Source: a virus
Direction: 5' to 3' (one strand)
IMG/VR virus record: IMGVR_UViG_3300027763_000026
Length of the DNA stretch: 64,000 bases
The position numbers were made by a program, and so were the translations under genes. The notes under the pieces were generated by a model that saw nothing but the letters and a program-made list of their open reading frames with translations, ran no database searches and was not told the DNA's origin. Positions 39,446-64,000 of the stretch are shown here, piece after piece (within the stretch, counting starts at the first letter, position 1; each line of letters opens with the position of its first letter).

Positions 39446-39832
39446 GGGCCCGTACTGGTTTCGATTTTAAAGAAATAAATTGAAATGCAAGTGGAGGTTG
39501 AATCGAGGACTCCTTAAAAAGTTTCAATTTATATTAACTGCCAAAACAGCAAAATATAAAGGTCATATTTCAGCAAGAGTTTCTCTTGTTGAGATGACCG
39601 CTTCTGTAGCTTAAGTTACAGCGTGATACCCTTGACACATCTATTGGGATATTGCGTAATTAGATGTCTTATTATTAGTAGTTTTTTTATTCTATTAATA
39701 TTAAGTATCAAAAATAAAATCGCTGAGTATGTTTGCTCTTTATCTATACAAAGCTAAAAACAAAAAGAACTAAACTTGTAGTATTTTAATTTAGATTTTT
39801 AAAAGACAGAGGTTCAATTCCTCTCGGGTCCA
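39446..39832 (+). ncRNA. ssrA: tmRNA
   Basis: 5' GGGCCCGUACUGGUUUCGA; 3' T-arm AGAGG-UUCAAUU-CCUCU then CGGGUCC-A; acceptor stem with G3.U70; tag frame 39540-39614 (AKTAKYKGHISARVSLVEMTASVA*); CCA not encoded. Confidence 0.92.
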
Positions 39833-39899
39833 AGTAAACGAATCCCTCTGTCTGCATTTTTATTAGAAAAAACGTATCGTAACTATATATAATCCTTAT

Positions 39900-47828: not shown

Positions 47829-48157
47829 TTTTTTCTATTAAAATGATTTTGTATTATATCAAAATTACGATCTAATTTAGCTTCTATTCTATCAAAATAA
47901 GTTTCAAATGATTCTTTCGTTACATAAGTAGTTGAAATTTTTAAAGCTAGATCTGCTATCTCTTGTTGATGTTTTCTGCCTTCTAATTCCATTTCTTTTC
48001 TTAATGTTATAAAATCGCTAAATGTTTTATCATTTATATCTTTCATTAAAGTCTCTTGTTTGTCAAAAAGAGAAAATACTCTAGTGAATAGCCATCCCCC
48101 TAAGAAAGAAAGTGCCCCTAAGACTAAGTTAAATATAATAGTAATATCTAAATTCAC
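47825..48157 (-). CDS. Membrane-anchored coiled-coil hypothetical protein (GTG start)
   Basis: N-terminal transmembrane segment; GTGTAA-N8-GTG. Confidence 0.55.
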   Translation of the reverse strand: MNLDITIIFNLVLGALSFLGGWLFTRVFSLFDKQETLMKDINDKTFSDFITLRKEMELEGRKHQQEIADLALKISTTYVTKESFETYFDRIEAKLDRNFDIIQNHFNRKN

Positions 48158-48186
48158 ATAGATAATTACACATTAATATATAGATA

Positions 48187-49251
48187 TTAGAGTTTTAAAT
48201 CACCAAAATCTTCGTCTTCTATGTCCGTCTTCCTTGCGCCCACTTTATAGCTTGATATCTCAGTTTCTTGTGGCGCAACTTGCACTTTGCTACTGTCCAA
48301 ATAGCTGTCATGCCATCCAGCTATAGGATTATCTTTTTGATTAAATATCTTCTTATAGCCTAAGCTTCTTAATCGGCTATCACAAAGCCACTTAGAGTAG
48401 CCATCTAGAACGTCAGCATTTAATCCAAGTAAACTGCCTTTACTAAAGAGATACTGAGACCATTCACTTTCGTTCTTCGCGGCCTGTTCATAGAAAGCGT
48501 ATATCTTATCTTCATTTTTCTTTACAATAGATGTAAAGCCTTCTTTATCTTCGTCACGAAGTATCTTCAATAGATTTTGAGAGGTAGCAAAATGCAAAGC
48601 TTCATCTCTTTGAATGAATTTTATAATTTTAGAATTACCTTCCATCTTTCCCCGATATCCAAAATAAAAAGAACAAGCAAAAGAAACATAAAACACGAGT
48701 CCTTCCATTACATTAATAGAAAGAATAGCATCAAAAATCTTTTGTTTAGGGTCTTTCTTTTCGTCGCTACCAAGAATTTTATCAAAATTATCTCTAATTA
48801 ATTGAGCGCGACCTGTTATTTCTTTATCCTCCATGATACTATCAAAAAATTTAGTAGGATCTGGATGAACATTATTTAAAAGATAAGAATAAGAATAACT
48901 ATGAATGCCTTCAAATTGAGCCCAAGTATTCATGCATATTTCTAGCTCTGGATTACTAACGTAATCTTTTAATGAGTGTATGCTTCTAGATAACATACTA
49001 TCTCCAAGAGTTTGGAATCTTAAATTACTATCAAATACAAATCTTTCGGTGTCAGTCAAATTTTTATAATCGCTTCTATCTTTTCCTAAAGCTATTTCAT
49101 GTGGCCACCAGAAGTTTTCATTTTGTTTTTTGAATAGCTCAAAAAATATTGGATATTTAAACCTATCATATCTTTGCAAATTTAAATCCTCGCCAAGAAA
49201 CAATGGTTGTTTAGTAAAGTCTACGTTTTTAAAATTTAATACTGTTTTCAT
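48187..49251 (-). CDS. nrdB: Ribonucleotide reductase class Ia beta subunit
   Basis: FWWPHEI, QTLGDS, EGIHSYSY, EGLVFY, IQRDEALH. Confidence 0.95.
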   Translation of the reverse strand: MKTVLNFKNVDFTKQPLFLGEDLNLQRYDRFKYPIFFELFKKQNENFWWPHEIALGKDRSDYKNLTDTERFVFDSNLRFQTLGDSMLSRSIHSLKDYVSNPELEICMNTWAQFEGIHSYSYSYLLNNVHPDPTKFFDSIMEDKEITGRAQLIRDNFDKILGSDEKKDPKQKIFDAILSINVMEGLVFYVSFACSFYFGYRGKMEGNSKIIKFIQRDEALHFATSQNLLKILRDEDKEGFTSIVKKNEDKIYAFYEQAAKNESEWSQYLFSKGSLLGLNADVLDGYSKWLCDSRLRSLGYKKIFNQKDNPIAGWHDSYLDSSKVQVAPQETEISSYKVGARKTDIEDEDFGDLKL

Positions 49252-51494
49252 AATTTACAAGCTCCACTAGCACAGTCATCTTCTTTTTGTGTCATAGACT
49301 GCTCTTTATCTCCATCGTCTGTATTATTATAATACAAACTAATTAGTCCAAGGCTATAAGCATACATTATTTCTTTCATAACTTTGCTGTCTGGTAATAT
49401 ATGATTTTCATAGTGACTGTAATTATAATACACATTAGTAGAAATAGCCATATCAATATATTTTTGAATTACTGCGTTTATTTTTAATAAACCTAAATTA
49501 TCTTTAAAATCAAAAGCTAATTCATAATTATGATCATATTTTCCAATTCCTGGAACCATAACTGGAAGTTTACCCATTTTGCTTGTTTTATAAGTAATAA
49601 GACTACGAATAGGCTCGACACCGTTTGTAGAAGATTGAATTACAGAGCTACTCTCACAAGGCATACAGGAGGATAATGTCGAATGTCTTAATCCAAATTC
49701 TTTGATATCTTTTCTTAGTTTCTCCCAATCAAGTGATAGTTTTCTTTTTACTAATTCGTCTACTTTATCTTTGTATGTATCTATTGGCAAGATACCTTTA
49801 GAGTATTTTGTATTTTCAAATTTTTCGCATCTGCCTTTTTCTTTAGACAATTGGCAACTACTCTTTAAAAGATAGTATTGAAAATGCTCCATCCACTCAT
49901 CTATTACCGAAAGAGACTTATCTGAATTATATTTTAATTCATTTTTAGCAAGAAAAGCTGCAAGATTGGTGATTCCAACTCCAAGGCTTCTACGCTTTTT
50001 AGCAAAATTTTCTGCTGCGAAATTGAAGTAGTCTTGAATGTCTATAATTTCTTCAAGGAATCTTACAATTAAATCACAAACTTTTTCTAAATCTTGCCAG
50101 TTTTTTACTTCTAACATATTAACTGCCGAAAGAATACACATACCAATTTCTGCATCTTTATCATGGTAGTCATTAAGTGGAATTGTGGGGTGAATAACTT
50201 CTGTGCAAAGATTGCTCATGGTTACTTTATCAGACCAAGCTCCATGATTGTTAGCATGATCTACATTTAGAATATAAATTCTTCCAGTTTCAACTCTTTC
50301 TTTTATTATAAGAGAGAATAATTTACGAGCAGAAATTTTCTTTTTAATTTTTAGTTTCTTAGACTCGCATTCTTTATAAATCTTATCAAAGTCTTTTGTC
50401 CCCCAAGCTTCATAAAGCTCTGGCACTTCGGCAGTATTAAATAGCATGATATCTTCATCTTTTAAAACCCTATCATAAAATAATTTGCTCATACCAACCG
50501 TATAATCAAGTTTACGAACTCGATTGTCGTCTGTTCCAGCATTATTTTTCAATACTACAACATCTTCAATTTCGTAATGCCACCATTGTATATTGCAGGT
50601 TGCACTTCCTCCTCTTAAACCATTTTGTTGCCAAGCTTTCACGCTACTCTCATAAATTTTTAAGAATGGAATTAACCCCGTATGGACGACTTCCCCATTT
50701 TTAATTGGGGCGCCAATTGCTCTAATCCTGCTAACATCAATTCCAATTCCACATCTATTTGCCGTAGCCATACTAACTGCCGTAGCACTAGCAGTAATGC
50801 TTTCTTTCGTATCGTCTACCCCAATCAAGCAACAACTCGCGTAATTTTTACTAGAAGTTCTTACTCCTGCCATAATTGGAGTTGGCAAATTTATTTTATG
50901 CTTACTAATAGCATCGTAAAATTTCCTTACATAAGTCAATCTAGTTTCGCTTGGATAATTTATAAATGCATAAGCAGAGATTAATATATAAGCAAACTGT
51001 GGTGTTTCGTAAATTTGTTGGGTAGTTCTATTTTTTATTAAATATTTATCACATAATTGTTTTATACCAGCATAGGTAAAGATAAAGTCTCTTTCGTGAT
51101 CTATAATTTCGCCCAGTTTATTTATTTCATCTTCTGTGTATTTTTCTAGGATAGCAGGGTCATATATCTTATTTTTTAAACCATTATTTATAAATTCAGA
51201 AAGTCTTGGCGCATGTTTGCCCTTCCAAACGTCTTTTCTTAATTGATAATTAAGAAGCCTAGCTGCAACATATTGATAGTTTGGTTTTTCTATAGAAATT
51301 AAATTTGCCGCACTTTCAATCAATAAGCTATGAATTTCTTTTGTATGAACTCCATCGGTTATATTAATTTTAGCATTTATCTCTATGTCTGTTAAACTAA
51401 CTCCAGAATATCCATCTATAGCCCAATTAATAACTTTGTTAATTTTTTCTATATCAAATTTTTCAGTAGTATTATTTCTTTTCTTAACATTCAT
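49248..51494 (-). CDS. nrdA: Ribonucleotide reductase class Ia alpha subunit with ATP cone
   Basis: VKKRN ATP cone, ASCC, SNLCTE, MPCESSS, C-terminal CASGACKL. Confidence 0.96.
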   Translation of the reverse strand: MNVKKRNNTTEKFDIEKINKVINWAIDGYSGVSLTDIEINAKINITDGVHTKEIHSLLIESAANLISIEKPNYQYVAARLLNYQLRKDVWKGKHAPRLSEFINNGLKNKIYDPAILEKYTEDEINKLGEIIDHERDFIFTYAGIKQLCDKYLIKNRTTQQIYETPQFAYILISAYAFINYPSETRLTYVRKFYDAISKHKINLPTPIMAGVRTSSKNYASCCLIGVDDTKESITASATAVSMATANRCGIGIDVSRIRAIGAPIKNGEVVHTGLIPFLKIYESSVKAWQQNGLRGGSATCNIQWWHYEIEDVVVLKNNAGTDDNRVRKLDYTVGMSKLFYDRVLKDEDIMLFNTAEVPELYEAWGTKDFDKIYKECESKKLKIKKKISARKLFSLIIKERVETGRIYILNVDHANNHGAWSDKVTMSNLCTEVIHPTIPLNDYHDKDAEIGMCILSAVNMLEVKNWQDLEKVCDLIVRFLEEIIDIQDYFNFAAENFAKKRRSLGVGITNLAAFLAKNELKYNSDKSLSVIDEWMEHFQYYLLKSSCQLSKEKGRCEKFENTKYSKGILPIDTYKDKVDELVKRKLSLDWEKLRKDIKEFGLRHSTLSSCMPCESSSVIQSSTNGVEPIRSLITYKTSKMGKLPVMVPGIGKYDHNYELAFDFKDNLGLLKINAVIQKYIDMAISTNVYYNYSHYENHILPDSKVMKEIMYAYSLGLISLYYNNTDDGDKEQSMTQKEDDCASGACKL

Positions 51495-51620
51495 TTTATA
51501 TAAAATAGGGGGAACTCTATATTACAGTGTTTTTTAAAATTTAAAAAGAAAAAAATTTAGTTTTATTAACATTTATTATTTAACTCAATAAAGAGTGTAC
51601 TAATCTGTATTTTTATAACA

Positions 51621-51905
51621 ACTTCCCAATGAGCTCTTCAAAGCGGAGCTTTCCCTGTGCTTTGCGCAGGGTTGGTGAAAGCCTATTAGTTCTACTTCCC
51701 AATTGAGTCTGTAAACCTTTCGGTCCCTAACACTTATCGGATGTCGGTAGGATCATCCATCGCGTGTTAGCCCTTACACCTACACTCCCACTATTGCTAG
51801 TGGTTTCTGGGTCGCAAGCTCCTAAGCGTTGCCCACGTTTCGAACTAATGAGACTTATCGTTTAACGGAGTACGACAAACCTTATCCGCTAATTGGGCGG
51901 TATGT
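51621..51905 (-). ncRNA. Large structured RNA of about 285 nt, family unknown
   Basis: GC-rich island between AT-rich flanks; TTGACA(51940-35)-N17-TACTAT(51917-12); GNRA-capped hairpins and long-range 5-8 bp complementarities. Confidence 0.75.
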
Positions 51906-51969
51906 ATTTATATAGTATTATACATATTTACATTTGTCAAATAAATTTAATTTAATTATAATGTAAATA

Positions 51970-52713
51970 ATGAAAAAAGTTTCCTATTGTACAGTATGCT
52001 ATGGTAGATTATGGCAATTAGCGTTTACATTAAAATCTAATTTAGATAACCTTAAAGAAGACGAAGAGCTTGTTCTGGTAGACTATAATAGTCCAGATGA
52101 TACTATGATTTTTGTTTTAGGCACAAAAACTTTTAAAAAATATATAGAGGAAGAAAAATTAAAATTTATAAAAGTCTTAGATGTAAAAGAGTATAATTGT
52201 CCAAAATCTAAAAATATAGCTCATAGGTTAGGCTCTGGAGAAATTTTAGTAAATTTAGATGTGGATAATTTTTTATTAGGAATGCGGGAAGAAATCGATA
52301 AAGCTTTTAATAAAAATAAAAATAGTTTACTTCATATGTATTTTGAACCACAAGGAGGGTCTTTTGGCAGGATAGCTTTGACAAAAAGTAATTTTTATAA
52401 ATTGGGCGGTTACGATGAAGATCTATTGGAACATTCACATCAGGATACAGACTTAATCAATAGAGCAAAGGCATTGGGCATGACCTATGGCCTTCGTCCT
52501 TTAGAATCTGAAGTTATAGCTAATAACCTTTATGCGAAAAATAGATACTTAAGAGAGGACTGGTTTAGCATGCAACAAAAAAATAGAAAAATTAGTCAAG
52601 AAAATATTATGAATGGAAAATTTGTAGCTAATAAGAGTAAAGGTTGGGGAGAGTGTAAAATCATAGAGAACTACGATAAGGATATTATAAATTTAAAAGC
52701 TATACGCCCATAA
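51970..52713 (+). CDS. GT-A glycosyltransferase (GT2/GT7-like)
   Basis: LVLVDYNS, VNLDVD, FYKLGGYDE...QDTDL. Confidence 0.75.
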   Translation: MKKVSYCTVCYGRLWQLAFTLKSNLDNLKEDEELVLVDYNSPDDTMIFVLGTKTFKKYIEEEKLKFIKVLDVKEYNCPKSKNIAHRLGSGEILVNLDVDNFLLGMREEIDKAFNKNKNSLLHMYFEPQGGSFGRIALTKSNFYKLGGYDEDLLEHSHQDTDLINRAKALGMTYGLRPLESEVIANNLYAKNRYLREDWFSMQQKNRKISQENIMNGKFVANKSKGWGECKIIENYDKDIINLKAIRP

Positions 52714-52734
52714 AACTAGTGTAATCAATATATC

Positions 52735-53598
52735 ATGGAAATTGATTTTAGCAACGATATTCAAGCAGCTAAAAAAGGCAAAGCACCACTTAATAAACCA
52801 TTTCGTCTTCCTTCTGGGAGCAAAAAGAAATTTGGTGTTTATGTCAAAAACGATAAAGGTAATATTGTTAAGGTTACTTTCGGCGATCCAAATATGTCTA
52901 TCAAAAGAGATAATCCCGAAAGACGCAAAGCTTACAGAGCAAGACACGGTTGCGATAATCCTGGTCCAAAGTACAAAGCCAATTATTGGAGTTGCAAAAT
53001 GTGGAGCGCAAAACCAGTTAGTAAAATCGCTGGGAGTTGCGGAAAGCCTAACTGCGGTTCAGTTCAAAATGAAGAAGAAGTCACTTTGGAAATAGATGTT
53101 CAAGCTAAGAATAAAGGTCTTTGGTACAACATCCAACAAAAGAAAAAAAGAATGGGTAAAAATTATCGTCCAGCAAAACCAGGGTCGAAAGATCGACCAA
53201 CCCAAGAAGCTCTTAAAAAAGCACAAGGCTCTGATTATGAAAATGAGAATTATGAATGGGATGGAGAAACAGAATTTGATCAAAATGAATTTTTAAAATT
53301 AGATCCGACACTTGCTCAAGTAGCAGAACTCCCAGATGATCCAGAAGAAATGAAATATCATACGGAAGATACAGCTGATATGGCTCTTGCTCAATTTGAA
53401 GTCATAAGAGATTCTGCGATTGAAATTATTGAAATGTTAAAAAATAATCCAGAAGCAGCATTAGAAATAACAGAAGGATGGGTGACGAATAAAATAGCTT
53501 TAATTGAAGATTATATTGTAACAGTAAAAGATTATATTAAATATCCTTTAGAGGAAATGCAAGCTAAACAAATTGAAGGTGAAAAAAACATTAAGTAA
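52735..53598 (+). CDS. Conserved large-phage hypothetical protein
   Basis: LNKPFR...KKFGVYVKN...FGDPNMSIKRDNPERRKAYRARH...YWSC; GTGTAA-N10-ATG. Confidence 0.6.
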   Translation: MEIDFSNDIQAAKKGKAPLNKPFRLPSGSKKKFGVYVKNDKGNIVKVTFGDPNMSIKRDNPERRKAYRARHGCDNPGPKYKANYWSCKMWSAKPVSKIAGSCGKPNCGSVQNEEEVTLEIDVQAKNKGLWYNIQQKKKRMGKNYRPAKPGSKDRPTQEALKKAQGSDYENENYEWDGETEFDQNEFLKLDPTLAQVAELPDDPEEMKYHTEDTADMALAQFEVIRDSAIEIIEMLKNNPEAALEITEGWVTNKIALIEDYIVTVKDYIKYPLEEMQAKQIEGEKNIK

Positions 53599-54109
53599 AC
53601 TCTGGAACTGGAAAACAAAAACATTACTTGTTGGGGTTGGATTAATCGTATCTTGGGTCGCTTGTTTTAAAATTGGTTTTGAACTTAAAAAATACAATAA
53701 CATAACTAACCTTCCAAACTCTTGTTTTGTTGATGCTATGATTTATGCTTCTCAATGTAATCTCTTATTAGAAACAAACAATGATATATGGAACAATGTT
53801 TATGGTTTTACATTTTACTACAAAGACGACATAGATAATATAATTGGTCATGCAGTTTGTGTTTTTGAGTATAAGAATAACTTATGGATCTATGATCCAA
53901 ACTGGGGAACATCACCAATATGTCAAATTGGAAATAAAAAAGAATATAGGGAAAAAATAAAGTTGTACATCAATAAAACTTATCCTATAATAGTAGTAGA
54001 GGATTTTATGTTAAATGATTGGACATACGTCCAAAAAATAAAGAAAAATAAAATGAACAAAATCTATAAAGAGGTGTCTATACATTTAGATGAAAACAAG
54101 AAGGAGTAA
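53573..54109 (+). CDS. Membrane-anchored protein with a possible Cys-His-Asp (transglutaminase/papain-like) triad
   Basis: Transmembrane segment, SCFVDA, GHAVCV, YDPN. Confidence 0.4.
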   Translation: MKVKKTLSKLWNWKTKTLLVGVGLIVSWVACFKIGFELKKYNNITNLPNSCFVDAMIYASQCNLLLETNNDIWNNVYGFTFYYKDDIDNIIGHAVCVFEYKNNLWIYDPNWGTSPICQIGNKKEYREKIKLYINKTYPIIVVEDFMLNDWTYVQKIKKNKMNKIYKEVSIHLDENKKE

Positions 54110-54118
54110 ACTAATAAT

Positions 54119-54850
54119 ATGAAAATAAACCTACTAAAAGGGTTACTAATAAGCACAGCCGCAAAATTAATTGCGGCTTTTTTAATGCTCAGTAGCGGTC
54201 AGTCAAAAGCTGCATTGACCGTAATCAATGGTGACTTTAGCGATCTGACAGGCCTAACTTATGTGGGTGACGTCTGGTATTCTGGCGTTCCCACTGGCTG
54301 GAACACTGACTTTCCAAACACAATTTACACAGTCAAGTATACTGGTATCACTAATGGCACTTATGATTACGTTGCTAATATTTCTCAGCTCACCTCTACA
54401 TCTCCTAATTTTTATGCTCTTTATCAAAGCGTAGGAACTACAGATTATACAGGTGATGTTACTGTAAAATTTGATTTAACAAATATTAATGGTGGTGGAT
54501 ATGATGTTGGTGTTGCAATCTTTCAAGGTCCCAATTTTAACACTCTACTTGCGAATCGTAGCATTCAGGATGTGTTCCCAGATGCTAACGGTGTTCCTCA
54601 AAACGGTGTTGGAACCTTTGAGCTCACAGCATTGAATGTCGCATCTGGAAGCTTACTTCAGATCGCTTTTTGGACAACTGGAGGCACTCCAGGCTTGGAC
54701 AATGTCTCGATAATCCCTGAACCCACAACATTAGATTTAATCTCACTACCAGTAACAGCAGGTGCTTACATGGTGGATATGATCTCAAAGAATATCTACA
54801 CATGTGGAATAAACCCTAGAAAATTTAATGCTCTAACCATTGTGTACTAA
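54119..54850 (+). CDS. Secreted protein with a variant PEP-CTERM-like C-terminus
   Basis: Signal peptide; SIIPEPTTLDLISLPV. Confidence 0.75.
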   Translation: MKINLLKGLLISTAAKLIAAFLMLSSGQSKAALTVINGDFSDLTGLTYVGDVWYSGVPTGWNTDFPNTIYTVKYTGITNGTYDYVANISQLTSTSPNFYALYQSVGTTDYTGDVTVKFDLTNINGGGYDVGVAIFQGPNFNTLLANRSIQDVFPDANGVPQNGVGTFELTALNVASGSLLQIAFWTTGGTPGLDNVSIIPEPTTLDLISLPVTAGAYMVDMISKNIYTCGINPRKFNALTIVY

Positions 54851-54853
54851 TTT

Positions 54854-55705
54854 ATGAACAAACCAACAAACATAATAAAGAAGGCATTGAGCTTGATTGC
54901 CGCTGCTTTCATGACAACCGCAGGTAATCTGTATAGTGTATCATATTTGTATCAAGATGACTTTAGCGTCAATGCTGGGGCATTGAACGGGCGCGCTACT
55001 GCTGCAGGGTTCGGCAATTGGACCAACGCTGATGGCGCGTTCCAAGTCGGAAGCGATATGATTACTATCAACTCAAACACTCCTGTTGATTACCACTCAG
55101 CGTCGTTCTCGCTTCCCACACTGGGAGTCACCGACATTCTCTCGCTCAGTATTACAGTTCGCCCCTCTGGACCACTCTTCACAGGAATTGGTTTTAATCC
55201 GAACCCTGCCGCATACCTAACCCAGTCTGGATATGCTTGGGTTTATTACGAAGGATTGGGCGCAGCTAATCCGAACATTCAGATTTTTCAAGGTCCAAGT
55301 ACCGCAGGAGCGGTTTACGCAGCACCACTGACCCACCCGACTCTTAATTTTGACCCATCTCTCGCGACAACATTTGAATTTACTTACTCTGCTTCCGCCA
55401 AAACGCTCTCGCTACTGGCATCGAATGGGAGCAACTCGTCCACTCTCCTGAACCAACTCAATGTGAGCACAATGCCGCTGGAAGCTTTCAGTAATTTTTC
55501 CTTGCAGTTCCAAGGTCAGACTCTAGATACAGACTTCTATCCCGCTCATGTTGATCAATTGAGTGTTTCTATTATTCCTGAACCTACAACATTAGATTTG
55601 ATCTCTTTACCAGTAAAAGCGTGTTTTTACATAGCATGTAAAAGTGAGTCTCTACAAAGTAGACATTATCGCAAAGAATATTTAAGCAAATGGATTAAAC
55701 CCTAA
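54854..55705 (+). CDS. Secreted protein with a variant PEP-CTERM-like C-terminus
   Basis: Signal peptide MNKPTNIIKKALSLIAAAF; SIIPEPTTLDLISLPV; GC-richer core. Confidence 0.75.
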   Translation: MNKPTNIIKKALSLIAAAFMTTAGNLYSVSYLYQDDFSVNAGALNGRATAAGFGNWTNADGAFQVGSDMITINSNTPVDYHSASFSLPTLGVTDILSLSITVRPSGPLFTGIGFNPNPAAYLTQSGYAWVYYEGLGAANPNIQIFQGPSTAGAVYAAPLTHPTLNFDPSLATTFEFTYSASAKTLSLLASNGSNSSTLLNQLNVSTMPLEAFSNFSLQFQGQTLDTDFYPAHVDQLSVSIIPEPTTLDLISLPVKACFYIACKSESLQSRHYRKEYLSKWIKP

Positions 55706-55713
55706 AAAATTTT

Positions 55714-57732
55714 ATGAAAAAACCAACAAACATAATCAAGAAAGCTCTGAGCTTCATTGCCGCTGCTTTCATCGCAACCGCAGCCTCAGATGCCCAAGCA
55801 GTAGTGTTCTTATGGAACAACACTGGTACCAATTGGACATCACCTGCCAGTTGGACCAATGGAGTGCAACCTGCATCCACTAGTTCCAGCGCCACCACAG
55901 ATGAAATTACATTTGGTAATTTTGGAGCAAGTAACAATACTGTTGTATTAACCTCTACAAGATCAGCAAAAAACATAACATTCCTAACAAACGCAAACCC
56001 ATATTTAATCAATAGTTTTAATGGCGTTCAAACACTATCATCTAGTGGAGGAATTACAAATAATTCTACTGCTACTCAAACATTTAATATATTAATAGAA
56101 AATGCTAACGCTAATAACACTTGGTTTCAAACAGCAGGAGGTTCATTAATATTTAATAATATAGCTTCGCTAACCACCGCTTCATCTGCTACATCTAGAA
56201 CTCTAACTTTAGCAGGAGATGGTGCATTCACATTTAATAATGAATTAAAACAAGGTGGCACATCTACTGCTGGTAAAGTTATATATACTGGAGGTGGAAG
56301 TGTTACATTTAATGGAACCAATACTTTAGGAGGTGGTTTTGATATTACAGGAGGCGGTACTGTTAATGTTAATGGCGGTACTGGATTAGGTACAGGTTTA
56401 ATAACACTTGGAGGAGCAAGCGGTACAACTAATGCGCCAAAACTTATAGTTAATACAGCCAATGGGTTATCTGTCGCCAATAGTTTAAAAGGATCAACAA
56501 GTCTTTCTACCATGGGAACATTAGATCTAGCAGGATCTAATTCTGCTGCGGTTACCACTTATGTTATGAATCAATATCAAGGTAACAATATGAATTTTAC
56601 CAATCATGGTGGATACAAGACATTGCTACAGTTTACTAATTCTGCTAGTACATTGACTGCATCTACAGGTTCTAGTGGTGGTAGAAGATTGTTTAACAAT
56701 AGTACTAATTTAATTGTACAGTTTGATGGTTCATTAGATATTGGCGGAACAGTTGCAGATAATAGTCTTGTTGGCGGTGTGGGCGATTTCCTTTTTAAAG
56801 GATCTTTACTCAATACAGGAAGTGCACTCAGAGGTTTAACAAAGTCAGGAACTGGAACAGTAACTTTACAAGCAGTTAATTCATACAATGGAGACACTAC
56901 GATACAAGATGGTATATTTGTTGTTGATACTGCTGGTTCTATTGCTTCTAGCGCTGCTATAGTAACAGGAGGTACTTTGCAAGTTAAAGGTATCGCTGGA
57001 GGAGTCAATGTTAATAGTGGAAGATTACTTGTAGATACTGGTGGTAGAGTTGGAACTACAACAGTAGGAGGTGGTACTCTATTAGTTTCTGGTACAGCAG
57101 GAACTACCACAGTAAACTCTGGAACTGCTACAGTAAATGTAGGTGGAACAGTTGGAAGCACAACAATCAATGGAAGTTTGCTATCAGTAAATGGAAACGC
57201 AGGAGATGTTTTAGTAAATACAGGAGGTACATTAGGTGGCTCTGGTAGTGTGCAAGGTTTGACTTTAAATGGTGGTACTGTGGCCCCTGGCAATAGTCCT
57301 GGTCTGCTAACTGCTTATGAGTTAAACGGAAGCAATGGAAGATTCCAATTCCAATTAGGCGCACCAACTACCAGAGGTACTACCTATGATGCTATTAATG
57401 TAAGCACTTTACTAACTTTAGGAGCTAGTACATCATGGACATTTGAAACATTAGATAATTACTCATTTCAAATGAATGATAGTTACGATTTATTTAATTT
57501 TGCGTCAATCGAAGCATCTGCATTTGATGTAAATACATTACTAGCAGCATTACCTAATTTAGATACTGCTAATTCAAATTTGAAATGGGACGCTAATAGT
57601 TTTACCACAGATGGAGTAGTAAATGTTATTCCAGAACCTTCTACATTATCACTTCTATTAGGTGGTGCTAGTGTTTTAATAGGTCTTAGAATTGTGAGGA
57701 GAAACAAATGCAAACTCCCAACACGCTTTTAA
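55714..57732 (+). CDS. Beta-helix protein with an autotransporter-associated beta-strand repeat and canonical PEP-CTERM sorting signal
   Basis: LTKSGTGTVTLQAVNSYNGDTTIQDG; GTVAPGNSPG; VIPEPSTLSLLLGGASVLIGLRIVRR. Confidence 0.88.
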   Translation: MKKPTNIIKKALSFIAAAFIATAASDAQAVVFLWNNTGTNWTSPASWTNGVQPASTSSSATTDEITFGNFGASNNTVVLTSTRSAKNITFLTNANPYLINSFNGVQTLSSSGGITNNSTATQTFNILIENANANNTWFQTAGGSLIFNNIASLTTASSATSRTLTLAGDGAFTFNNELKQGGTSTAGKVIYTGGGSVTFNGTNTLGGGFDITGGGTVNVNGGTGLGTGLITLGGASGTTNAPKLIVNTANGLSVANSLKGSTSLSTMGTLDLAGSNSAAVTTYVMNQYQGNNMNFTNHGGYKTLLQFTNSASTLTASTGSSGGRRLFNNSTNLIVQFDGSLDIGGTVADNSLVGGVGDFLFKGSLLNTGSALRGLTKSGTGTVTLQAVNSYNGDTTIQDGIFVVDTAGSIASSAAIVTGGTLQVKGIAGGVNVNSGRLLVDTGGRVGTTTVGGGTLLVSGTAGTTTVNSGTATVNVGGTVGSTTINGSLLSVNGNAGDVLVNTGGTLGGSGSVQGLTLNGGTVAPGNSPGLLTAYELNGSNGRFQFQLGAPTTRGTTYDAINVSTLLTLGASTSWTFETLDNYSFQMNDSYDLFNFASIEASAFDVNTLLAALPNLDTANSNLKWDANSFTTDGVVNVIPEPSTLSLLLGGASVLIGLRIVRRNKCKLPTRF

Positions 57733-58367
57733 AACATCCAAGACTATTAAAAATTTTTGGTTTTACATTAGTTGAAATGGCAGTTGTAATAGTTATAATG
57801 GCATTTGTAATGAGCTTATCGTTCTCTGCTTTTGGCGCAGTCAAACGTAAATCATCTCAAGCTGCTTGTGCTTCAAACATGAAACAAGTTGGTACAAGTA
57901 TTTTGTTATTTGCAGCAGAAAATGATGGCTGGTTGCCTCCAGGTCCAGATGGTCAAACAATTAATACATTCATTAGCGATAGTAGATTTGGTGGCACAAC
58001 TCAAAATGTGGTGGATAAATCTAACATAGAATATTATCTCACTAATTATATTCCTGTTACATATACAGGTAAAAAAAAGAAAGCAAATACTGTGTTTAGT
58101 TGTCCTGCACACAACGAACAACATCCTACCATTTGGAAAAGAGGATCTTGTTTTGGAGGAGCAGGTGGCGATTATGGCATAGAAAATTCTAAAAAAATAT
58201 TAGCATTGGATACAAATGATTATTTCTTAGTTGATTTTACCAAAGCTTTTACTAATCATTCTAGTGGCGCTTTAGATAAAACAATTAAAAATCCACATGG
58301 AAGCACAAGAAATCTGTTAAGAACAGATGGTAGTGTAATATTAGAATCTGACACAAAAGCCAGATAG
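57708..58367 (+). CDS. PVC-type prepilin-like protein (N-terminal cleavage/methylation motif plus H-X9-DG domain)
   Basis: GFTLVEMAVVIVIMA; CASNMKQVG; H-GSTRNLLRT-DG. Confidence 0.85.
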   Translation: MQTPNTLLKHPRLLKIFGFTLVEMAVVIVIMAFVMSLSFSAFGAVKRKSSQAACASNMKQVGTSILLFAAENDGWLPPGPDGQTINTFISDSRFGGTTQNVVDKSNIEYYLTNYIPVTYTGKKKKANTVFSCPAHNEQHPTIWKRGSCFGGAGGDYGIENSKKILALDTNDYFLVDFTKAFTNHSSGALDKTIKNPHGSTRNLLRTDGSVILESDTKAR

Positions 58368-58376
58368 AATAAAGCA

Positions 58377-59771
58377 ATGGATAATCACATGAGAAACTTA
58401 TTATTAAGTAATTATGAAAAAAGTCTTCCCTCAAAAAGAGATACAGAAGCCTTCATAAGTAATTTCCATCAATATAGGGCTAAGAAGAAAGCCCAAGAAA
58501 AAACTCATTATGCTTTAATTTTTGCTTGTGTTCTTATATTAAGTATGATAGGATCAATAATAGCTAAACAAACTAAAAACAATTTAGATATACAAACAGC
58601 AAGTGGAACAGAAAAATGCAATACACAAGTCATGGAAAAGTAGTAGTCTTTGAAGGAAACGTTGGTGAAGTTTCTACTTGGATCAAAAAACATGTTGGAG
58701 ATCACGACACAGTTAGTTTAAAGGATTACTTTAAAGATGAAGTTTTTGGAGTTCATAAAGTTGGAGAAGAGAAGTATAGATACTATTATCAATGCTTAGG
58801 AAAAGGTAGATATTCTATTTTTACAATGCAATGAATAAGATACCTTTTATCGTGGGCATTTGTATTGCAATTAGTATTTTTTATACAGTTTATAGTCCTC
58901 ATCCGTTTTTAGTAAAACAACAAATAGATAATTATGGCATGGATTTTGAATATGTAACAGATGAAGGTTCTTGCTTTACCCAGAGCGCAGAACCTATTGG
59001 CCATGATAGCCATAAATATATTTTAAGTCTAGGCAAACCTGCAAAGCCTACAAATTCAGAAGAACCTTTGTATGTGATGATAGGTTATACCATGAAACAA
59101 GTACGTTTAAAAAATAAATCCAATGTTTTCCAAACCCCAATATATAAAACCTTATGAAAAAAACAATAATACTATTAGCGGCGTTTCTATTAACAACCTA
59201 TTCTTATACAGAAGACCAAATAAGAATTAAAATAACTAAAAATGAAAAAGGTGAAATGATGCTTAATGTATCAGGTCATAAAAGCCCAGTAGCTCTAGAA
59301 GTTAATGGAATATCCAGACAAGTAGAAGTTAATGAAAGTGATGTTAACATGGAAAAAGAATTTCAATTCTCTACTTTTAGTTCTCCAGACACAGCTTCTG
59401 GAGCTTCGTCTACTCCAACCGATTCTCAATATAAAGTGCCTCCAGTATTATCAAACGGAGTTCCGTATCAAGCAACTCCAATTTAATCTTGTGTAAGCCT
59501 ATGTATGCTACTTAAAATCAAAAATTGGTGGGCTAATTTAAAATCCTATGATAAGTTCTTTTTTATCTCATTTGTACCAGCGATGCTTTTCACACTTTGG
59601 GGGCTAAGTGATCTTTACATTAATTACTTTGATTTATTAAGTAAGGAAGATCACCTTCAATTCTTTCTTAGAGTATTCTTTCCAGTATCATTAGCTACTT
59701 TCATTACGGTTCTAGAACATAATAAGAGAAAAAAGTTAATTAAAGATATCAAAACCTATTTAAATAACTAG
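58377..59771 (+). other. Five small genes, mostly membrane or secreted (58377-58643, 58616-58834, 58831-59157, 59154-59486, 59505-59771)
   Basis: ORF track; overlapping genes; transmembrane or signal segments in four of five. Confidence 0.6.
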
Positions 59772-59784
59772 TGTAATATAATTT

Positions 59785-62700
59785 ATGGCTTTTATAGTTA
59801 AAAGAGATGCTCTACCATCACCATTACTTAATGGGCTACTCGCTTATTGGAAACTGAATACAACTAGCTGGTTGGATTCAAGTGAAAATCAGAATACCCT
59901 TTCTGTTACAAATGGTCTAAGTTCAAATATTACAATAGAAACTGGCAAAATAACAAATGCAACAAGATTTAATTATAATAAAACATTTCTTGAGAAATCA
60001 GATTTTCAATTTCCAAACTATTGGACTCAGTCATTTTGGGTAAAAATTATTAGTGACAATGTTACTGATGATAATTCAGAGGGGGAGGGAACATACCCAT
60101 GCTTCTTTGATTCTGGATATATTTCTGGAGCAAGAATAGCTTTTGTTGGTGGAGAACATAATTGTAGGAATAATTGGATTTATTCAAACCCACCTGGAGA
60201 TAATTATGGTCAAGTTTTTTCATTGGAATTAAATGAGTGGTACCATGTTTGCGTTACACAAGATTCATCTGGATTAAAATGGTATGTTAATGGATCATTA
60301 TATATTACGGATGAAGGGGCTTTAACAGAAAGAAGTGGAACTGGATTAGCTATAGGAGCCCAAACCGCAGGAAATGATCCAGAGTCACGTTTTTATGCAG
60401 CTCAAGGAGATTACAGTATTTGCGAATACGGAGTCTGGAATCGAGCATTAACTCAATCAGAAATAAAACAACTTTATAACTCTGGGTCTGGAATAACCTA
60501 CCCATTTTATTCTTCTCTTTTACTTCATATGGATGGAGCAAATGGGTCAACAAATTTTACAGATAGTTCTATAAATGATCTTCCAATTACGGTCAATGCA
60601 AATCCTCAGATAAGCACAGCTCAAAGTAAATTTGGAGGAAGCTCTGCTTATTTTGATGGAGATGGAAGTTATTTAGACGTTTCTAATTTGCCTAGCGATT
60701 ATCTAAGTCAAGATTTTACTATTGAAGCTTGGGTTTGGGTAGATGACTCTAAAATTAATTCTTGTTTATTTAATACATTTCCACATAACTCTTTCGGAGT
60801 TAGTTTAAATAGAGAATATACAGGAGGTAGAACGTCTTTTGGTGTTGGTGATGGTGTTAATTGGGATGTAGTAATTGAAAGTGATACTCCATTATCTTTC
60901 AATACATGGCAGCATATTGCTTTTGTAAGAAGTAATAATACTATAACTTTATATGAGAATGGAATAGCTCGTGCTTCTACTAATTATATGCCAACTGGAT
61001 TTAGTACTTCTTGCAGAATTGGATCAATTACATGGGATGGTGGTTTAAATGGCGAAGAATATAAAGGATATATGGACGAATTTAGAATTATTAAATACGC
61101 CGCTTACACATCAAACTTTACTCCACCAACTCAACCATTTGAATTTTCTGGTGCACGAAGTTTAATAATTAAAAAAAATACAACCTTCAAAATTCCAAGA
61201 ACGTTTGAATTCATCCTCACCTCAAGAGCCTTTAACTCTTCTGGTAACCAAGTCGGCGAAGAAAATACAGGGGATATACCCCAAGGATGGATGAATAACC
61301 AAAACTGTACCTCTGTTACCTTTGCAAACAACAACAGCGTGACGAGTATTGGAAGTTATGCGTTTGATGGTACCAGCCTAGCCACAGCCACCATACCGAA
61401 TAGCGTTACAAGTATTGGGGATTATGCGTTCAAGAATTGTCTAACCAGCGTCACCTTTGCGGCTCCTTCTAGCCTAACTAGCATTGGGAATTATGCGTTT
61501 AAGTGTTCCAACCTAACCAGCATAACCATTCCAAATAGCGTAACCAGCATTGGCGCTCATTCATTTGAGCAATGTACTAGCCTCGCCACAGTCACTTTGC
61601 CAACAAATATAAACTTTACGAGTATTGGTGCCAATTCATTCAAATCTTGCACCAGCCTAACCAGCATCACAATCCCCAACAGCGTAACGAGCATTGGGAA
61701 TTATGCGTTTGATGGTACCAGCCTAACCAGCATCACTATTCCTAACAGCGTAACGAGCATTGGTAGTTATGCGTTCCATCAATGCAGCAGTCTAACCAGC
61801 ATCACCATTCCAAGCAGCGTCTTAAGTATTGGGGGCTATGCGTTTCAAAATTGCTCTGCCCTAGCCACAGCTACTATTGGTAACAGCGTAACTAGCATTG
61901 GAAATTATATGTTCCAAAATTGCTCTAGCCTAGCCACAGTCACCTTTACACCAAATTCTAGCGTTACAAGCATTGGTGATTATGCGTTTGCTGGCACTAT
62001 TTTTAATTCCATTACAATCCCCAATAATGTGAATAGTATCGGGAACAGAGCGTTCGAAGGTTGCGGTCTAGCCAGCATCACTATTCCCAATAACGTAATA
62101 AGCATTGGGGCTTATGCGTTCTCTGGTTGCACCAGCCTAGCCACAGTCACCATTGGAACAAGTGTAACGACTCTTGGGGATGCTGTATTCAAAAACTGCT
62201 CTAGCCTAACCAGCATTACTATCCCAAATACCGTAAATAGCATTCCATATTATGCGTTCAGAGGCACCAACCTAGGCACAGTAACCTTTACACCAACTTC
62301 TACCGTAACAAGCATTGGGAGTTATGCGTTTGCTTACCTGCCGCTAAGTAGCGTTACTATACCCAACAGCGTCTTAAGTATTGGGGTTCGTGCGTTCTTT
62401 AGTTGCTCCAGCCTAAACACACTCACTATTGGCACTAGCGTAACAACCATTGGAAGTTCTGCGTTTGCTTATACAGCCCTAACCAATCTTACTATCCCAA
62501 ACAGCGTTTTAACCATTGAGCCTGAAGCGTTTAATCAATGCAACCTAAACACACTCACTATTGGCACTAGCGTAACAACCATTGGAAGTTCTGCGTTTGC
62601 TTATTCAGCATTAACTAGTGTTACTATCCCAAGCAGTGTTACAACTATTGGAGAGAATGCATTTAAAGAGAATTCAATTAGCTCATTGACCATAATAGGC

Positions 62701-63585
62701 AACAATCTTAGAACCATTGGTGGTTTTGCTCGCAATCAAATTGCCTCACTAACCATACCCAATGGTGTGACAACCATTGGCAGTAGTGCATTCTATTACA
62801 ATTCAATTGATTCACTAACCATACCCAGTAGTGTGATAACCATTGGCAGTGGTGCATTTTCTTACAATGAAATGACCACATTGACCATAGGAAGCAGTGT
62901 CATAACCATTGGGCAGAACGCATTTTATTACAATCTACTTACCTCGCTAACCATACCCAACGGTGTTCAGACCATTGGCGATTTTGCATTCGCTTATAAT
63001 CAAATTGGCGGCCCATTAACCATACCCAACAGCGTCCAAAATATTGGAAGTCATGCGTTTGCTGACAATTCAATTTCATCTGTGACCATAAGCAACACTG
63101 CGACTAGCATTGGAACTTATGCGTTTAGTAACAATTTATTAACTTCAGTAATTATACCAAACAGTGTTTTAACCATTGGGAATGGCGCATTTTATAACAA
63201 TCGACTTGCCTCAGTGACCATAGGTAACAGTCTCCAAGTCATTAGTGTTGGTGCATTTAGTACCAATTTATTAACTTCAGTGACTATACCCAGCAACGTA
63301 AATAGCATTGGCAATTACGCATTTAATAACAATTCATTAACTTCAGTGACTATACCAAGTACTGTTTTAACCATTGGGCAGGGCGCATTTAGAAATAATT
63401 CTTCACTTACCACAGTGAACTGCTACACAACACGAACAGCTTTTGTTGCTAATAATGCGTTTTTCAATGTTGGTGCATTGACCATTCATGCAAGAATATC
63501 AGATAACACTTGGACTGCCGCACCTAGCCCTGGCGTAACGTTTCAAGGAAAGACTGGCGTTATAATCATCAAAGATTTGACTTAA
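59785..63585 (+). CDS. 1266-aa protein with two LamG-like domains and a long BspA-type leucine-rich repeat array (putative adhesin or tail fibre)
   Basis: WYHVCVTQD...WYVNG...YGVWNRALT; WQHIAFVR...YMDEFRI; about 30 LTSITIPNSVTSIGxxAF-type repeats. Confidence 0.85.
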   Translation: MAFIVKRDALPSPLLNGLLAYWKLNTTSWLDSSENQNTLSVTNGLSSNITIETGKITNATRFNYNKTFLEKSDFQFPNYWTQSFWVKIISDNVTDDNSEGEGTYPCFFDSGYISGARIAFVGGEHNCRNNWIYSNPPGDNYGQVFSLELNEWYHVCVTQDSSGLKWYVNGSLYITDEGALTERSGTGLAIGAQTAGNDPESRFYAAQGDYSICEYGVWNRALTQSEIKQLYNSGSGITYPFYSSLLLHMDGANGSTNFTDSSINDLPITVNANPQISTAQSKFGGSSAYFDGDGSYLDVSNLPSDYLSQDFTIEAWVWVDDSKINSCLFNTFPHNSFGVSLNREYTGGRTSFGVGDGVNWDVVIESDTPLSFNTWQHIAFVRSNNTITLYENGIARASTNYMPTGFSTSCRIGSITWDGGLNGEEYKGYMDEFRIIKYAAYTSNFTPPTQPFEFSGARSLIIKKNTTFKIPRTFEFILTSRAFNSSGNQVGEENTGDIPQGWMNNQNCTSVTFANNNSVTSIGSYAFDGTSLATATIPNSVTSIGDYAFKNCLTSVTFAAPSSLTSIGNYAFKCSNLTSITIPNSVTSIGAHSFEQCTSLATVTLPTNINFTSIGANSFKSCTSLTSITIPNSVTSIGNYAFDGTSLTSITIPNSVTSIGSYAFHQCSSLTSITIPSSVLSIGGYAFQNCSALATATIGNSVTSIGNYMFQNCSSLATVTFTPNSSVTSIGDYAFAGTIFNSITIPNNVNSIGNRAFEGCGLASITIPNNVISIGAYAFSGCTSLATVTIGTSVTTLGDAVFKNCSSLTSITIPNTVNSIPYYAFRGTNLGTVTFTPTSTVTSIGSYAFAYLPLSSVTIPNSVLSIGVRAFFSCSSLNTLTIGTSVTTIGSSAFAYTALTNLTIPNSVLTIEPEAFNQCNLNTLTIGTSVTTIGSSAFAYSALTSVTIPSSVTTIGENAFKENSISSLTIIGNNLRTIGGFARNQIASLTIPNGVTTIGSSAFYYNSIDSLTIPSSVITIGSGAFSYNEMTTLTIGSSVITIGQNAFYYNLLTSLTIPNGVQTIGDFAFAYNQIGGPLTIPNSVQNIGSHAFADNSISSVTISNTATSIGTYAFSNNLLTSVIIPNSVLTIGNGAFYNNRLASVTIGNSLQVISVGAFSTNLLTSVTIPSNVNSIGNYAFNNNSLTSVTIPSTVLTIGQGAFRNNSSLTTVNCYTTRTAFVANNAFFNVGALTIHARISDNTWTAAPSPGVTFQGKTGVIIIKDLT
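62412..62604 (+). repeat. Exact 61-bp direct repeat within the LRR array (62412-62472 and 62544-62604)
   Basis: cctaaacacactcactattggcactagcgtaacaaccattggaagttctgcgtttgcttat occurs twice, 132 nt apart. Confidence 0.9.
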
Positions 63586-63597
63586 TTTTCATTTTAA

Positions 63598-63632
63598 TTG
63601 ACAAAATATATTATAGAAAATATAATATATAT
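63598..63632 (+). promoter_or_regulatory. Consensus sigma70 promoter in leaderless geometry
   Basis: TTGACA(63598-603)-N17-TATAAT(63621-626)-N6-ATG. Confidence 0.85.
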
Positions 63633-64000
63633 ATGAGTAAAACAATTCACTTTGTATCTGGGCTGCCTAGAGCAGGATCAACATTATTAATGAATCTTTT
63701 AGCACAAAATCCTAAAGTTCATTCAACCGCCACTAGTGGACTTCATGAAATAGGTTATATTGCTAGACAATTTCATAGCACAGAAGAGTTTAAGACTATC
63801 CCCAATCCAAGAGATGGCGAGACTTTATTCTATGACTACGTGAAGGGTGGATGTGAAAATGCTTTTAATAGATTAACAGATAGACCTATCGTAGCTGATA
63901 AATGCCGTTCTTGGGTTGGGCATCTTGATATGCTCTTTGCTATTTGGCCTAACGCAAAAGTGCTAGTGCCAGTTCGTGATATGCGTGCGATCCTATCTTC
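63633..64000 (+). CDS. Sulfotransferase (partial, runs off the window edge)
   Basis: HFVSGLPRAGSTLL...IVADKCR...PVRDMRAILS. Confidence 0.8.
   Translation, partial: MSKTIHFVSGLPRAGSTLLMNLLAQNPKVHSTATSGLHEIGYIARQFHSTEEFKTIPNPRDGETLFYDYVKGGCENAFNRLTDRPIVADKCRSWVGHLDMLFAIWPNAKVLVPVRDMRAILS

Follow-up and report, generated by a model that had tools for sequence, protein, structure and literature searches.

The locus described here lies on a 64,000-nucleotide stretch of viral DNA, IMG/VR record IMGVR_UViG_3300027763_000026 (hereafter the window), and consists of eight co-directional open reading frames (ORFs), O1 to O8, on the + strand between positions 54119 and 59486, which are spaced by 3-9 nt or overlap (Table 1). 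O1 and O2 encode signal-peptide proteins with a variant IPEP tail, O3 a PEP-CTERM protein with a beta-helical passenger, O4 a prepilin-like protein, and O5 to O8 small proteins, mostly of membrane or secreted type. A packed co-directional run over this same interval had been described in an earlier annotation made from the letters alone (the initial annotation), and the eight ORFs were recovered in the present analysis. The tight packing extends beyond them, since from 52735 to 59771 every gene is on the + strand and overlaps its neighbour or is separated from it by a few bases. We put a probability of roughly 0.6 on the joint proposal that this cassette is a conserved, fast-reshuffling module of a T4-like freshwater phage clade, and that its best reading is remodelling of the surface of the infected cell with the help of host sorting enzymes.

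The window is AT-rich, with a G+C content of about 30%, and no similarity to deposited phages was found at the nucleotide level. The G+C content of O1-O3 is 0.37-0.49 against a background near 0.30, and is highest (up to 0.49) in O2. Genes of T4 type, namely rIIA (phrog_612, E 1.7e-100), DNA ligase and nrdAB, were identified in the window, so that the phage-type flanks named in the initial annotation were found as described. Absent from that annotation were a conserved upstream gene with a Cys-His-Asp arrangement, the capture of the O2 domain from a cellular glycan-utilisation locus, and the swapping of modules.

Signal-peptide proteins and the repeated scaffold

The N-termini of O1, O2 and O3 each show a basic stretch, a hydrophobic stretch and then an A-x-A-like site, and an IPEP motif is situated near the C-terminus of all three (signal-peptide and transmembrane (TM) assignments in this study are hydropathy-based). 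The tail of O3 is of canonical type, with VIPEPS followed by a TM helix at residues 643-661 and then RIVRRNK. It scored 19.0 bits on the PEP-CTERM model TIGR02595 (cut-off 16) and 18.6 bits on PF07589, below the cut-off of 20.7; orthologues of O3 in four large relatives (G001-G004) were over the PF07589 cut-off, with 22.9-24.9 bits. Residues 374-404 of O3 matched the autotransporter-repeat models TIGR02601 (33.9 bits, cut-off 19.85) and PF12951 (31.6 bits, cut-off 27).

The C-termini of O1 and O2 read IIPEPTTLDLISLPV, in which IPEP is followed by TTLDLISLPV, and then end in a tail of 27-30 residues that has neither a TM segment nor a terminal Arg cluster. Neither TIGR02595 nor PF07589 matched O1 or O2. 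A frameshift concealing a canonical anchor was ruled out by reading all three frames, where none was found. The three PEP-CTERM proteins proposed in the initial annotation are therefore one canonical member, O3, and two anchorless IPEP variants without a model match. Tails of the form IIPEPT.L.L..P are also present in related loci (L018, L019, L024, L026 and L027) and in eight protein clusters of O2 relatives, and because the same tails recur in this way the variants in O1 and O2 are not a private decay.

The DNA that joins the array proteins is itself repeated. Two scaffold copies (Table 1) match each other in the direct repeats D2 (89%) and D3 (81%) at the DNA level. Past the IPEP block a 22-nt indel shifts the frame, so that homologous DNA is read differently in O1 and O2, which suggests that part of the scaffold repeat is maintained at the DNA level and not as a peptide. 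One and the same O3 passenger is coupled to three different signal peptides among relatives. Two contigs from RNA libraries depart from the window inside the array: a metatranscriptome contig of run X3 leaves it at 54923, precisely where the O2 signal-peptide module ends, and continues as the start of an O3-type passenger, and a contig of run X5 diverges at 54860, just before the O2 ATG (AATATAATTTATG). Because one O3 passenger has three signal peptides and an RNA contig switches passenger at 54923, the locus reads as a constant frame of signal peptides, IPEP tail and spacer with exchangeable passenger domains, and the X3 and X5 divergences show that cassette variants co-occur in the lake population.

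Searches of PHROGs, NCBIfam and Pfam gave no useful match for O1, O2, O5-O9 or the upstream gene p178. The AlphaFold2 model of O2 had a predicted local distance difference test score (pLDDT) of 82.7 overall and above 90 at residues 30-240, and Foldseek matched it to ERGIC-53 and to legume L-type lectins (E 3e-9, probability 1.00, TM-score 0.45-0.6). On this model the O2 domain is an L-type lectin fold, a concanavalin-like beta-sandwich, a prediction at the level of fold only. O1 orthologues were found in L018, L024 and L027. Two O2 homologues, P0329 and P0373, combine an N-terminal O1-like domain and an O2-like lectin domain in a single polypeptide, with no PEP tail; these fusions suggest that the O1 and O2 domains may work together. 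An inverted repeat with perfect 8-bp arms and a loop of 6 nt lies at 54157-54178, within the part of O1 that codes for the signal peptide (residues AAKLIAAF); this O1-type signal peptide is conserved in relatives, and the inverted repeat may be a site acting at the DNA or RNA level.

The prepilin-like protein

In the N-terminal region of O4, residues 18-37 were over the cut-offs of the prepilin models PF07963 (21.6 bits, cut-off 21.2) and TIGR02532 (18.0 bits, cut-off 16.3), and a TM segment was assigned to residues 16-34. The C-terminus reads HGSTRNLLRTDG; across 14 homologues, H197, D207, G208 and three cysteines do not vary. The leader, the invariant end and the overlap with O3 uphold the earlier description of a GFTLVE/H-X9-DG prepilin-like gene overlapping a PEP-CTERM gene. 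The hidden Markov models that the initial annotation had named for such genes gave a divided result in the window, where TIGR02595 and TIGR02601 (both on O3) and TIGR02532 (on O4) were over cut-off; neither TIGR04294 nor PF07596 matched O4 at E <= 0.1.

A profile built on O4 and its homologues, searched against 1.84 billion representatives, retrieved 209,543 proteins at E <= 0.001, of which 12,465 had E <= 1e-10, and PF07596 was at or over its cut-off in five of ten matches that were checked. O4 and its cellular matches share an FTL.E leader, a Cys..N.KQ.G block, a Cys-Pro and an HG..RN...DG(H/S)V end. In a language-model atlas, the closest neighbours of O4 outside phages were Planctomycetota and Lentisphaerota clusters annotated N_methyl + SBP_bac_10 (DUF1559; score 0.97). 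From these shared features we read O4 as a probable short, divergent member of the H-X9-DG prepilin-like group.

Conservation and selection in related phages

Relatives of O3 were found in 27 IMG/VR loci (52-84% identity) and those of O4 in 14 loci (72-99%). The locus occupies the same place in about 25 IMG/VR contigs from many samples, including genomes of 217 kb and 172 kb rated complete. The 217-kb genome (G001, CheckV 100%) encodes a T4 Gp23 match at 312 bits, and nrdAB is on the same contig in L007 and L027. A chimeric assembly with host DNA, which the initial annotation had raised as a danger to its reading, was ruled out by the recurrence of the same locus with the same neighbours in these independent contigs and by the nrdAB and Gp23 genes of the relatives, and the cassette is accordingly phage-borne.

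The common layout, as seen in a tblastn matrix and an ORF listing, begins with p287, p178 and one to four signal-peptide proteins with PEP-type tails, and continues with O4, which about half of the loci have, then with O5, O6 and O7, in some cases O8 or a protein with a FecR domain, and O9. O3 is a conserved core gene of the locus and stands alone in most relatives, the O1/O2-type lectins being accessory. Array copy number and alleles differ even between near-identical phages.

Pairwise ratios of non-synonymous to synonymous substitution (dN/dS) against relatives were 0.07-0.39 over O1, O3, O4, O5, O6 and p178, and by gene were 0.24-0.39 for O1, 0.11-0.27 for O3, 0.07-0.25 for O4, 0.07-0.15 for O5 and 0.14-0.23 for p178. 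These values indicate purifying selection. Decay into pseudogenes in relatives, the other possibility that the initial annotation had set against its own proposal, was ruled out by the same values together with the intact ORFs.

Cellular origin of the cargo and the likely host

More than 200 homologues of O2 were found, the closest eight clusters having the phage-type signal peptide and the anchorless tail. The proteins P0274 and P0277 are 70% identical to O2 (P0273, 71%); their signal peptide is not that of O2, and their tail, IVPEPSTFSMLLCGLGAMTAIYRRRR, is a canonical PEP-CTERM one. P0277 is encoded on a contig of 1,846,145 bp and is therefore cellular. In P0266 the phage signal peptide is joined to a cellular passenger and a cellular tail, and in P0264 it is joined to a canonical tail; both look like intermediates of capture. 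The comparison shows O2 as a lectin-fold domain evidently captured from a bacterium, to which the phage adds its own signal peptide and tail.

A cellular contig from a metagenome scan (L086, 27.6 kb, G+C 0.56) encodes an O2-type protein with a PF07589 score of 32 bits, neighboured by a LacI-type regulator, a LamG/DUF4450 protein, a GH116 protein, a GDSL esterase and two O2-type paralogues. Genes for an MFS_2 sugar symporter and for an N_methyl prepilin with the C-terminus ..FLDGHV are on the contig as well. From its gene content this is a glycan-utilisation locus resembling a polysaccharide utilisation locus (PUL). An uncultured Verrucomicrobiota metagenome-assembled genome (MAG), L044, encodes an 821-aa PEP-CTERM protein overlapped over 22 nt by a 255-aa H-X9-DG prepilin, the arrangement seen for O3 and O4.

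Cellular relatives of the C-terminal half of O3, about 30% identical, were found in 36 genomes, of which 13 are Planctomycetota, 12 Verrucomicrobiota and 11 others; L044 is one of the 36. Together with the L044 pair, the atlas neighbours of O4 and the presence of the p178 domain in Verrucomicrobiota, this share of 25 in 36 sustains the link to the Planctomycetota-Verrucomicrobiota-Chlamydiota (PVC) group made in the initial annotation. The phage probably infects a PVC bacterium, with a member of the Verrucomicrobiota as the likeliest candidate. The idea that O3-like and O4-like genes generally lie side by side in cellular genomes was rejected.

The upstream genes p287 and p178

The first gene of the co-directional run, p287, lies upstream of the array in most relatives. 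It is followed by p178, which immediately precedes the array in nearly every relative whose contig extends that far, with 77-97% identity, exceeding the conservation of the array. In p178 one TM segment was assigned to residues 18-36, with basic residues before it, and the domain that follows is predicted to be outside the cytoplasm. The motifs LPNSCFVD and GHA.C.FEY..NLW.YDPNWG are kept in all members with an aligned catalytic domain. C51, H93 and D108 form a Cys-His-Asp arrangement, and the order of secondary-structure elements fits papain/transglutaminase-like enzymes.

No family model and no fitting Pfam family was found for p178, and a sequence search of the PDB returned noise only. The AlphaFold2 model was poor (pLDDT 58), and its best domain matches, AvrPphB (Z 5.6) and vasohibin (VASH1, Z 5.2), both cysteine proteases, lie in the noise range. 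Of 401 Verrucomicrobiota genomes sampled in a profile search, 5 had p178 homologues, in which NSCFV..GHAV..YD.N.G is kept, and in the atlas Verrucomicrobiota clusters rank next after the viral cluster among its neighbours.

RNA libraries and a candidate promoter motif

Part of the stretch is contained in 24 public runs, six of which are on record as RNA. Four lake metatranscriptome libraries held pieces identical to the window (positions 48000-64000 were compared), and in all four the deepest bins of this interval lie within O1-O3. In X3 the depth was 18-42 over O1-O3, 0-1.4 over nrdAB and 1-6 over the leucine-rich repeat (LRR) gene downstream of the cassette, values that were rejected as a measure of expression because the runs are contigs. 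The uneven depth argues for transcripts, short of proof, and the RNA-library contigs speak against the silent cassette that the initial annotation had allowed for.

The hexamer GTGTAA occurs at 22 sites in the window against 27 expected and is not enriched overall. In 6 of the 22 cases (27%) it is followed, at a distance of 8-12 nt, by the ATG that opens an ORF of 40 aa or more, compared with about 5% for permuted hexamers. These ATG-proximal sites, of the form (T/A)(A/T)GTGTAA, are at 52719, 59491, 59771, 36629(-), 13786(-) and 11518(-), and three of them precede p287, O9 and the LRR gene. The site at 52719 may mark the start of a transcription unit running through the cassette, and the motif may be a phage-specific promoter or start-site element. 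The GTGTAA promoters of the initial annotation thus keep their conspicuous placement before start codons, as a positional motif without overall enrichment. Scans for sigma-70 promoters and terminators gave results at or below chance.

Sorting enzymes and the proposed mode of action

The initial annotation had reported neither an exosortase nor a prepilin peptidase in the window. This was borne out by a crude test in which no stop-to-stop frame of the window had more than three membrane-like segments, leaving no ORF with at least four as a polytopic candidate. Four large relatives, of which two have a completeness rating of 100%, likewise lacked any match to exosortase (PF09721) or prepilin peptidase (PF01478). 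Since sorting enzymes were not found, the cargo would depend on the Sec, exosortase and prepilin peptidase of the host, or on another route.

Accordingly phrased as a model, the sequence of events would be as follows. During infection the phage would make exported proteins, comprising the lectin-fold O1/O2, the adhesin-like O3, the pilin-like O4 and the small membrane or secreted O5-O8. The bacterial sorting signals on this cargo would direct its export via host Sec, after which host exosortase would anchor or process O3, and host prepilin peptidase would cleave O4, making it available to a host filament of the type II secretion or type IV pilus-like kind. The phage would keep a constant scaffold and insert into it passenger domains captured from bacteria, and the infected cell would display glycan-binding and filament proteins chosen by the phage, with altered surface binding as the result. 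The O3-O4 pair and the O2 domain would then be phage versions of PVC surface gene sets from sugar-regulated PUL-like loci. Export, sorting by host enzymes, display at the surface and a benefit to the phage are steps that we infer.

Several observations weigh against this host-dependent remodelling. O1 and O2 are without the anchor required of exosortase substrates, and two of the three array proteins may therefore take another route. About half of the related loci have no O4, which makes the pilin dispensable for the module. A word-based search for close cellular relatives of O4 retrieved the phage clade alone (identity of at least 65%), and a scan of genome contigs gave none. An O4-like gene directly adjoins an O3-like gene in only 1 of the 36 cellular loci, with two more within 8 kb. 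The donor of O2 was not found among 401 sampled Verrucomicrobiota, which gave one match at 36% identity, or among 401 genomes sampled from the order of one Opitutae MAG. The RNA libraries were compared as contigs, in which DNA carry-over, strand and level are indistinguishable, and the runs had been picked for holding this stretch.

The benefit that such remodelling might bring was considered together with readings in which the cargo is sorted or used otherwise. As to the pay-off, we lean tentatively towards exclusion of competing phages or receptor masking, including on the debris of lysed cells: pilin-like and PEP-CTERM proteins of the phage would replace or cover host receptors, protecting the infected cell and stopping the loss of progeny on debris, and this would be one pay-off within host-dependent remodelling. 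FimU-like minor pilins of prophages enter the host pilus and block tip-binding phages (PMC12952977). The variation of array copy number and alleles between near-identical phages would be in keeping with such a role, as would the position of the array just upstream of a variable gene with LamG and LRR domains that resembles a receptor-binding protein; lytic phages offer precedents in T5 Llp and T4 Imm and Sp. The absence of O4 from half of the relatives tells against it, as does the source of the O2 domain, which is a glycan-utilisation locus and not a known receptor. That same source favours a pay-off possible to nearly the same degree, in which the phage would sustain or redirect the binding of glycans at the host surface, comparable to the role of PstS for phosphate in cyanophages. 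This would either support the copying of its genome (about 170-220 kb) or attach the infected cell to polysaccharide particles with dense host populations. The lectin-fold protein O2 shares about 70% identity with surface proteins encoded beside GH116, esterase and sugar symporter genes, the pairing of a PEP-CTERM protein with an H-X9-DG prepilin is a cellular one (L044, L086), and a sizeable set of sugar-nucleotide and glycosyltransferase genes apparently lies downstream; the module is, however, without a hydrolase or transporter, and in most relatives the lectins are missing and O3 alone is present.

The anchorless tails raise an unlikely alternative, namely that p178 cleaves or transfers them, or acts on PEP-CTERM proteins or pilins of the host, making the sorting private to the phage and independent of exosortase. 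The place of p178 directly upstream of the array wherever the contig reaches, its conservation above that of the array, the Cys, His and Asp kept in the aligned members and in the Verrucomicrobiota homologues, a predicted topology with the domain outside the cytoplasm, best fold matches to cysteine proteases and the recurrence of the IIPEPT.L.L..P tails in the five related loci named above are all compatible with it. Those fold matches come from the low-confidence model described above and have no family match behind them; p178 is also present in loci with canonical tails only, and the different frames after IPEP in O1 and O2 fit a scaffold kept at the DNA level better than a peptide signal. 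If true, the phage would possess a periplasmic sorting enzyme of its own and with it an exosortase-independent attachment of captured lectin domains to the envelope of the infected cell, next to a scaffold for exchanging passenger domains acquired from its hosts. It is very improbable that the array proteins are parts of the virion, such as fibres or decoration proteins, whose sorting signals are incidental. Beta-helices and lectin folds are common in receptor-binding proteins, and the locus adjoins the LamG and LRR gene with its conserved MAFIVKRD N-terminus, but export signals such as the cleavable-type signal peptides, the PEP-CTERM anchor of O3 and the prepilin leader of O4 do not suit assembly in the cytoplasm, and the close cellular homologues are ordinary PEP-CTERM proteins.

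Comparison with known systems

Phage-encoded pilins and exported auxiliary proteins are kinds of gene already known. The prophage-encoded FimU-like minor pilins (P-FimU) of F10-like Pseudomonas phages replace a host surface component and have a role in defence (PMC12952977). Like P-FimU, O4 is a phage gene for a putative type IV filament subunit that would need the peptidase and the assembly machine of the host and would replace a host surface component, and the system is highly variable in both cases. P-FimU is a single gene of temperate phages with clear homology to FimU and a demonstrated defence role, whereas O4 belongs to a lytic-type T4-like phage, is a predicted prepilin of H-X9-DG/DUF1559 type and is coupled to PEP-CTERM proteins.

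The T4-like cyanophages carry PstS, an exported auxiliary protein for phosphate, in hypervariable islands. As in that case, host-derived genes for exported proteins lie in a variable island of a T4-like phage and would depend on host export; the cargo here differs in comprising surface lectins, an adhesin-like protein and a pilin, with a modular scaffold of signal peptides and tails. With PEP-CTERM/exosortase sorting (EpsH/XrtA), O3 shares the signal peptide, PEP motif, TM helix and basic end, while the genes differ in being on a phage without a detected exosortase, and O1 and O2 in having kept IPEP and lost the anchor. O4 resembles the H-X9-DG/DUF1559 proteins of Planctomycetota, Verrucomicrobiota and Lentisphaerota in its leader and in the Cys..N.KQ.G, Cys-Pro and HG..RN...DG.V elements, and departs from them in being shorter (219 aa), in having no direct TIGR04294 or PF07596 match and in that its close relatives are all in phage-like contigs. 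The PUL-like cassettes of PVC bacteria (L086 and L044) likewise have PEP-CTERM and H-X9-DG prepilin genes that are adjacent or overlapping, and include a protein about 70% identical to O2; the phage copy is without their regulator, hydrolase and transporter.

No paper on phage-borne PEP-CTERM or H-X9-DG genes was found in text searches of the literature. As far as these searches reach, this would be the first virus with PEP-CTERM cargo and an H-X9-DG/DUF1559 pilin-like gene. To our knowledge, DUF1559 is among the largest bacterial protein families without a known function, and a small, conserved phage gene of this type, which stands beside a surface-protein gene and occurs in RNA libraries, offers a compact system in which the pair may be studied. 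The mechanism of capture is also visible, as constant phage signal-peptide and tail modules around passengers about 70% identical to bacterial glycan-utilisation proteins. We know of no cultured host for the clade of large T4-like lake phages, an abundant clade for which the locus points to PVC bacteria, probably Verrucomicrobiota, as hosts.

Small genes and flanking features

O5 is present in most relatives. In L013 (13080-13544) and L024 (13107-13571) one 154-aa ORF follows the position of O4, its C-terminal half is O6-like, and O5 was not detected. The slot of O8 is taken in L004, L010 and L014 by a protein of about 303-307 aa, and in L004 and L010 a FecR domain (PF04773) was identified there at 32.6 bits against a cut-off of 24; PF04773 had no match in the window. 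O9 is of uncertain membership in the module.

Table 1 Features of the cassette and its surroundings in the window
Feature	Position	Strand	Description
GTGTAA motif	52719-52724	+	10 nt before the p287 ATG
p287	52735-53598	+	287 aa; conserved phage protein, phrog_7595 (unknown function); first gene of the co-directional run
p178	53573-54109	+	178 aa; N-terminal membrane anchor, Cys51/His93/Asp108 domain; TTG start uncertain
O1	54119-54850	+	243 aa; signal peptide, beta-rich domain, non-canonical IIPEP tail without TM anchor
Scaffold copy 1	54703-54923	+	O1 IIPEP tail, intergenic stretch and O2 signal-peptide coding region
O2	54854-55705	+	283 aa; phage-type signal peptide, predicted L-type-lectin-fold domain, non-canonical IIPEP tail
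Scaffold copy 2	55564-55783	+	O2 IIPEP tail, intergenic stretch and O3 signal-peptide coding region
O3	55714-57732	+	672 aa; signal peptide, beta-helical PATR/autotransporter-associated repeat passenger, canonical PEP-CTERM tail
O4	57708-58367	+	219 aa; prepilin type, G|FTLVE leader, C-terminal H-X9-DG; first 25 nt overlap O3
O5	58377-58643	+	88 aa; single-pass membrane protein, ~44 residues, TM 45-63, short tail
O6	58616-58834	+	72 aa; small soluble protein
O7	58831-59157	+	108 aa; N-terminal hydrophobic anchor or signal
O8	59154-59486	+	110 aa; signal-peptide protein, Ser/Thr/Pro-rich end
O9	59505-59771	+	88 aa; two-TM protein, own GTGTAA motif at 59491, conserved downstream of the cassette
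LamG and LRR gene	59785-63585	+	1266 aa; two LamG-type domains, nine BspA-type LRR blocks (PF13306, E 1.4e-251), without signal peptide

The LamG and LRR protein, whose gene adjoins the cassette on its downstream side, has the appearance of a variable fibre or receptor-binding protein. In relatives the corresponding position is occupied by proteins that vary widely in length and have the same MAFIVKRD N-terminus. The region is bordered by genes for a GT2-like glycosyltransferase (51970-52713, +) and a sulfotransferase (PF13469; 63633-63998, +), and several further glycosyltransferases lie upstream of the GT2-like gene, so that glycan chemistry is heavily represented beside the lectin-like cargo.

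No tRNA was found in the window. A full-length transfer-messenger RNA (tmRNA) gene is located at 39446-39833 (+), with an Rfam RF00023 score of 107.6 bits against a gathering score of 47; it was also called by ARAGORN, and has an unusual tag peptide with the end ...TASVA.

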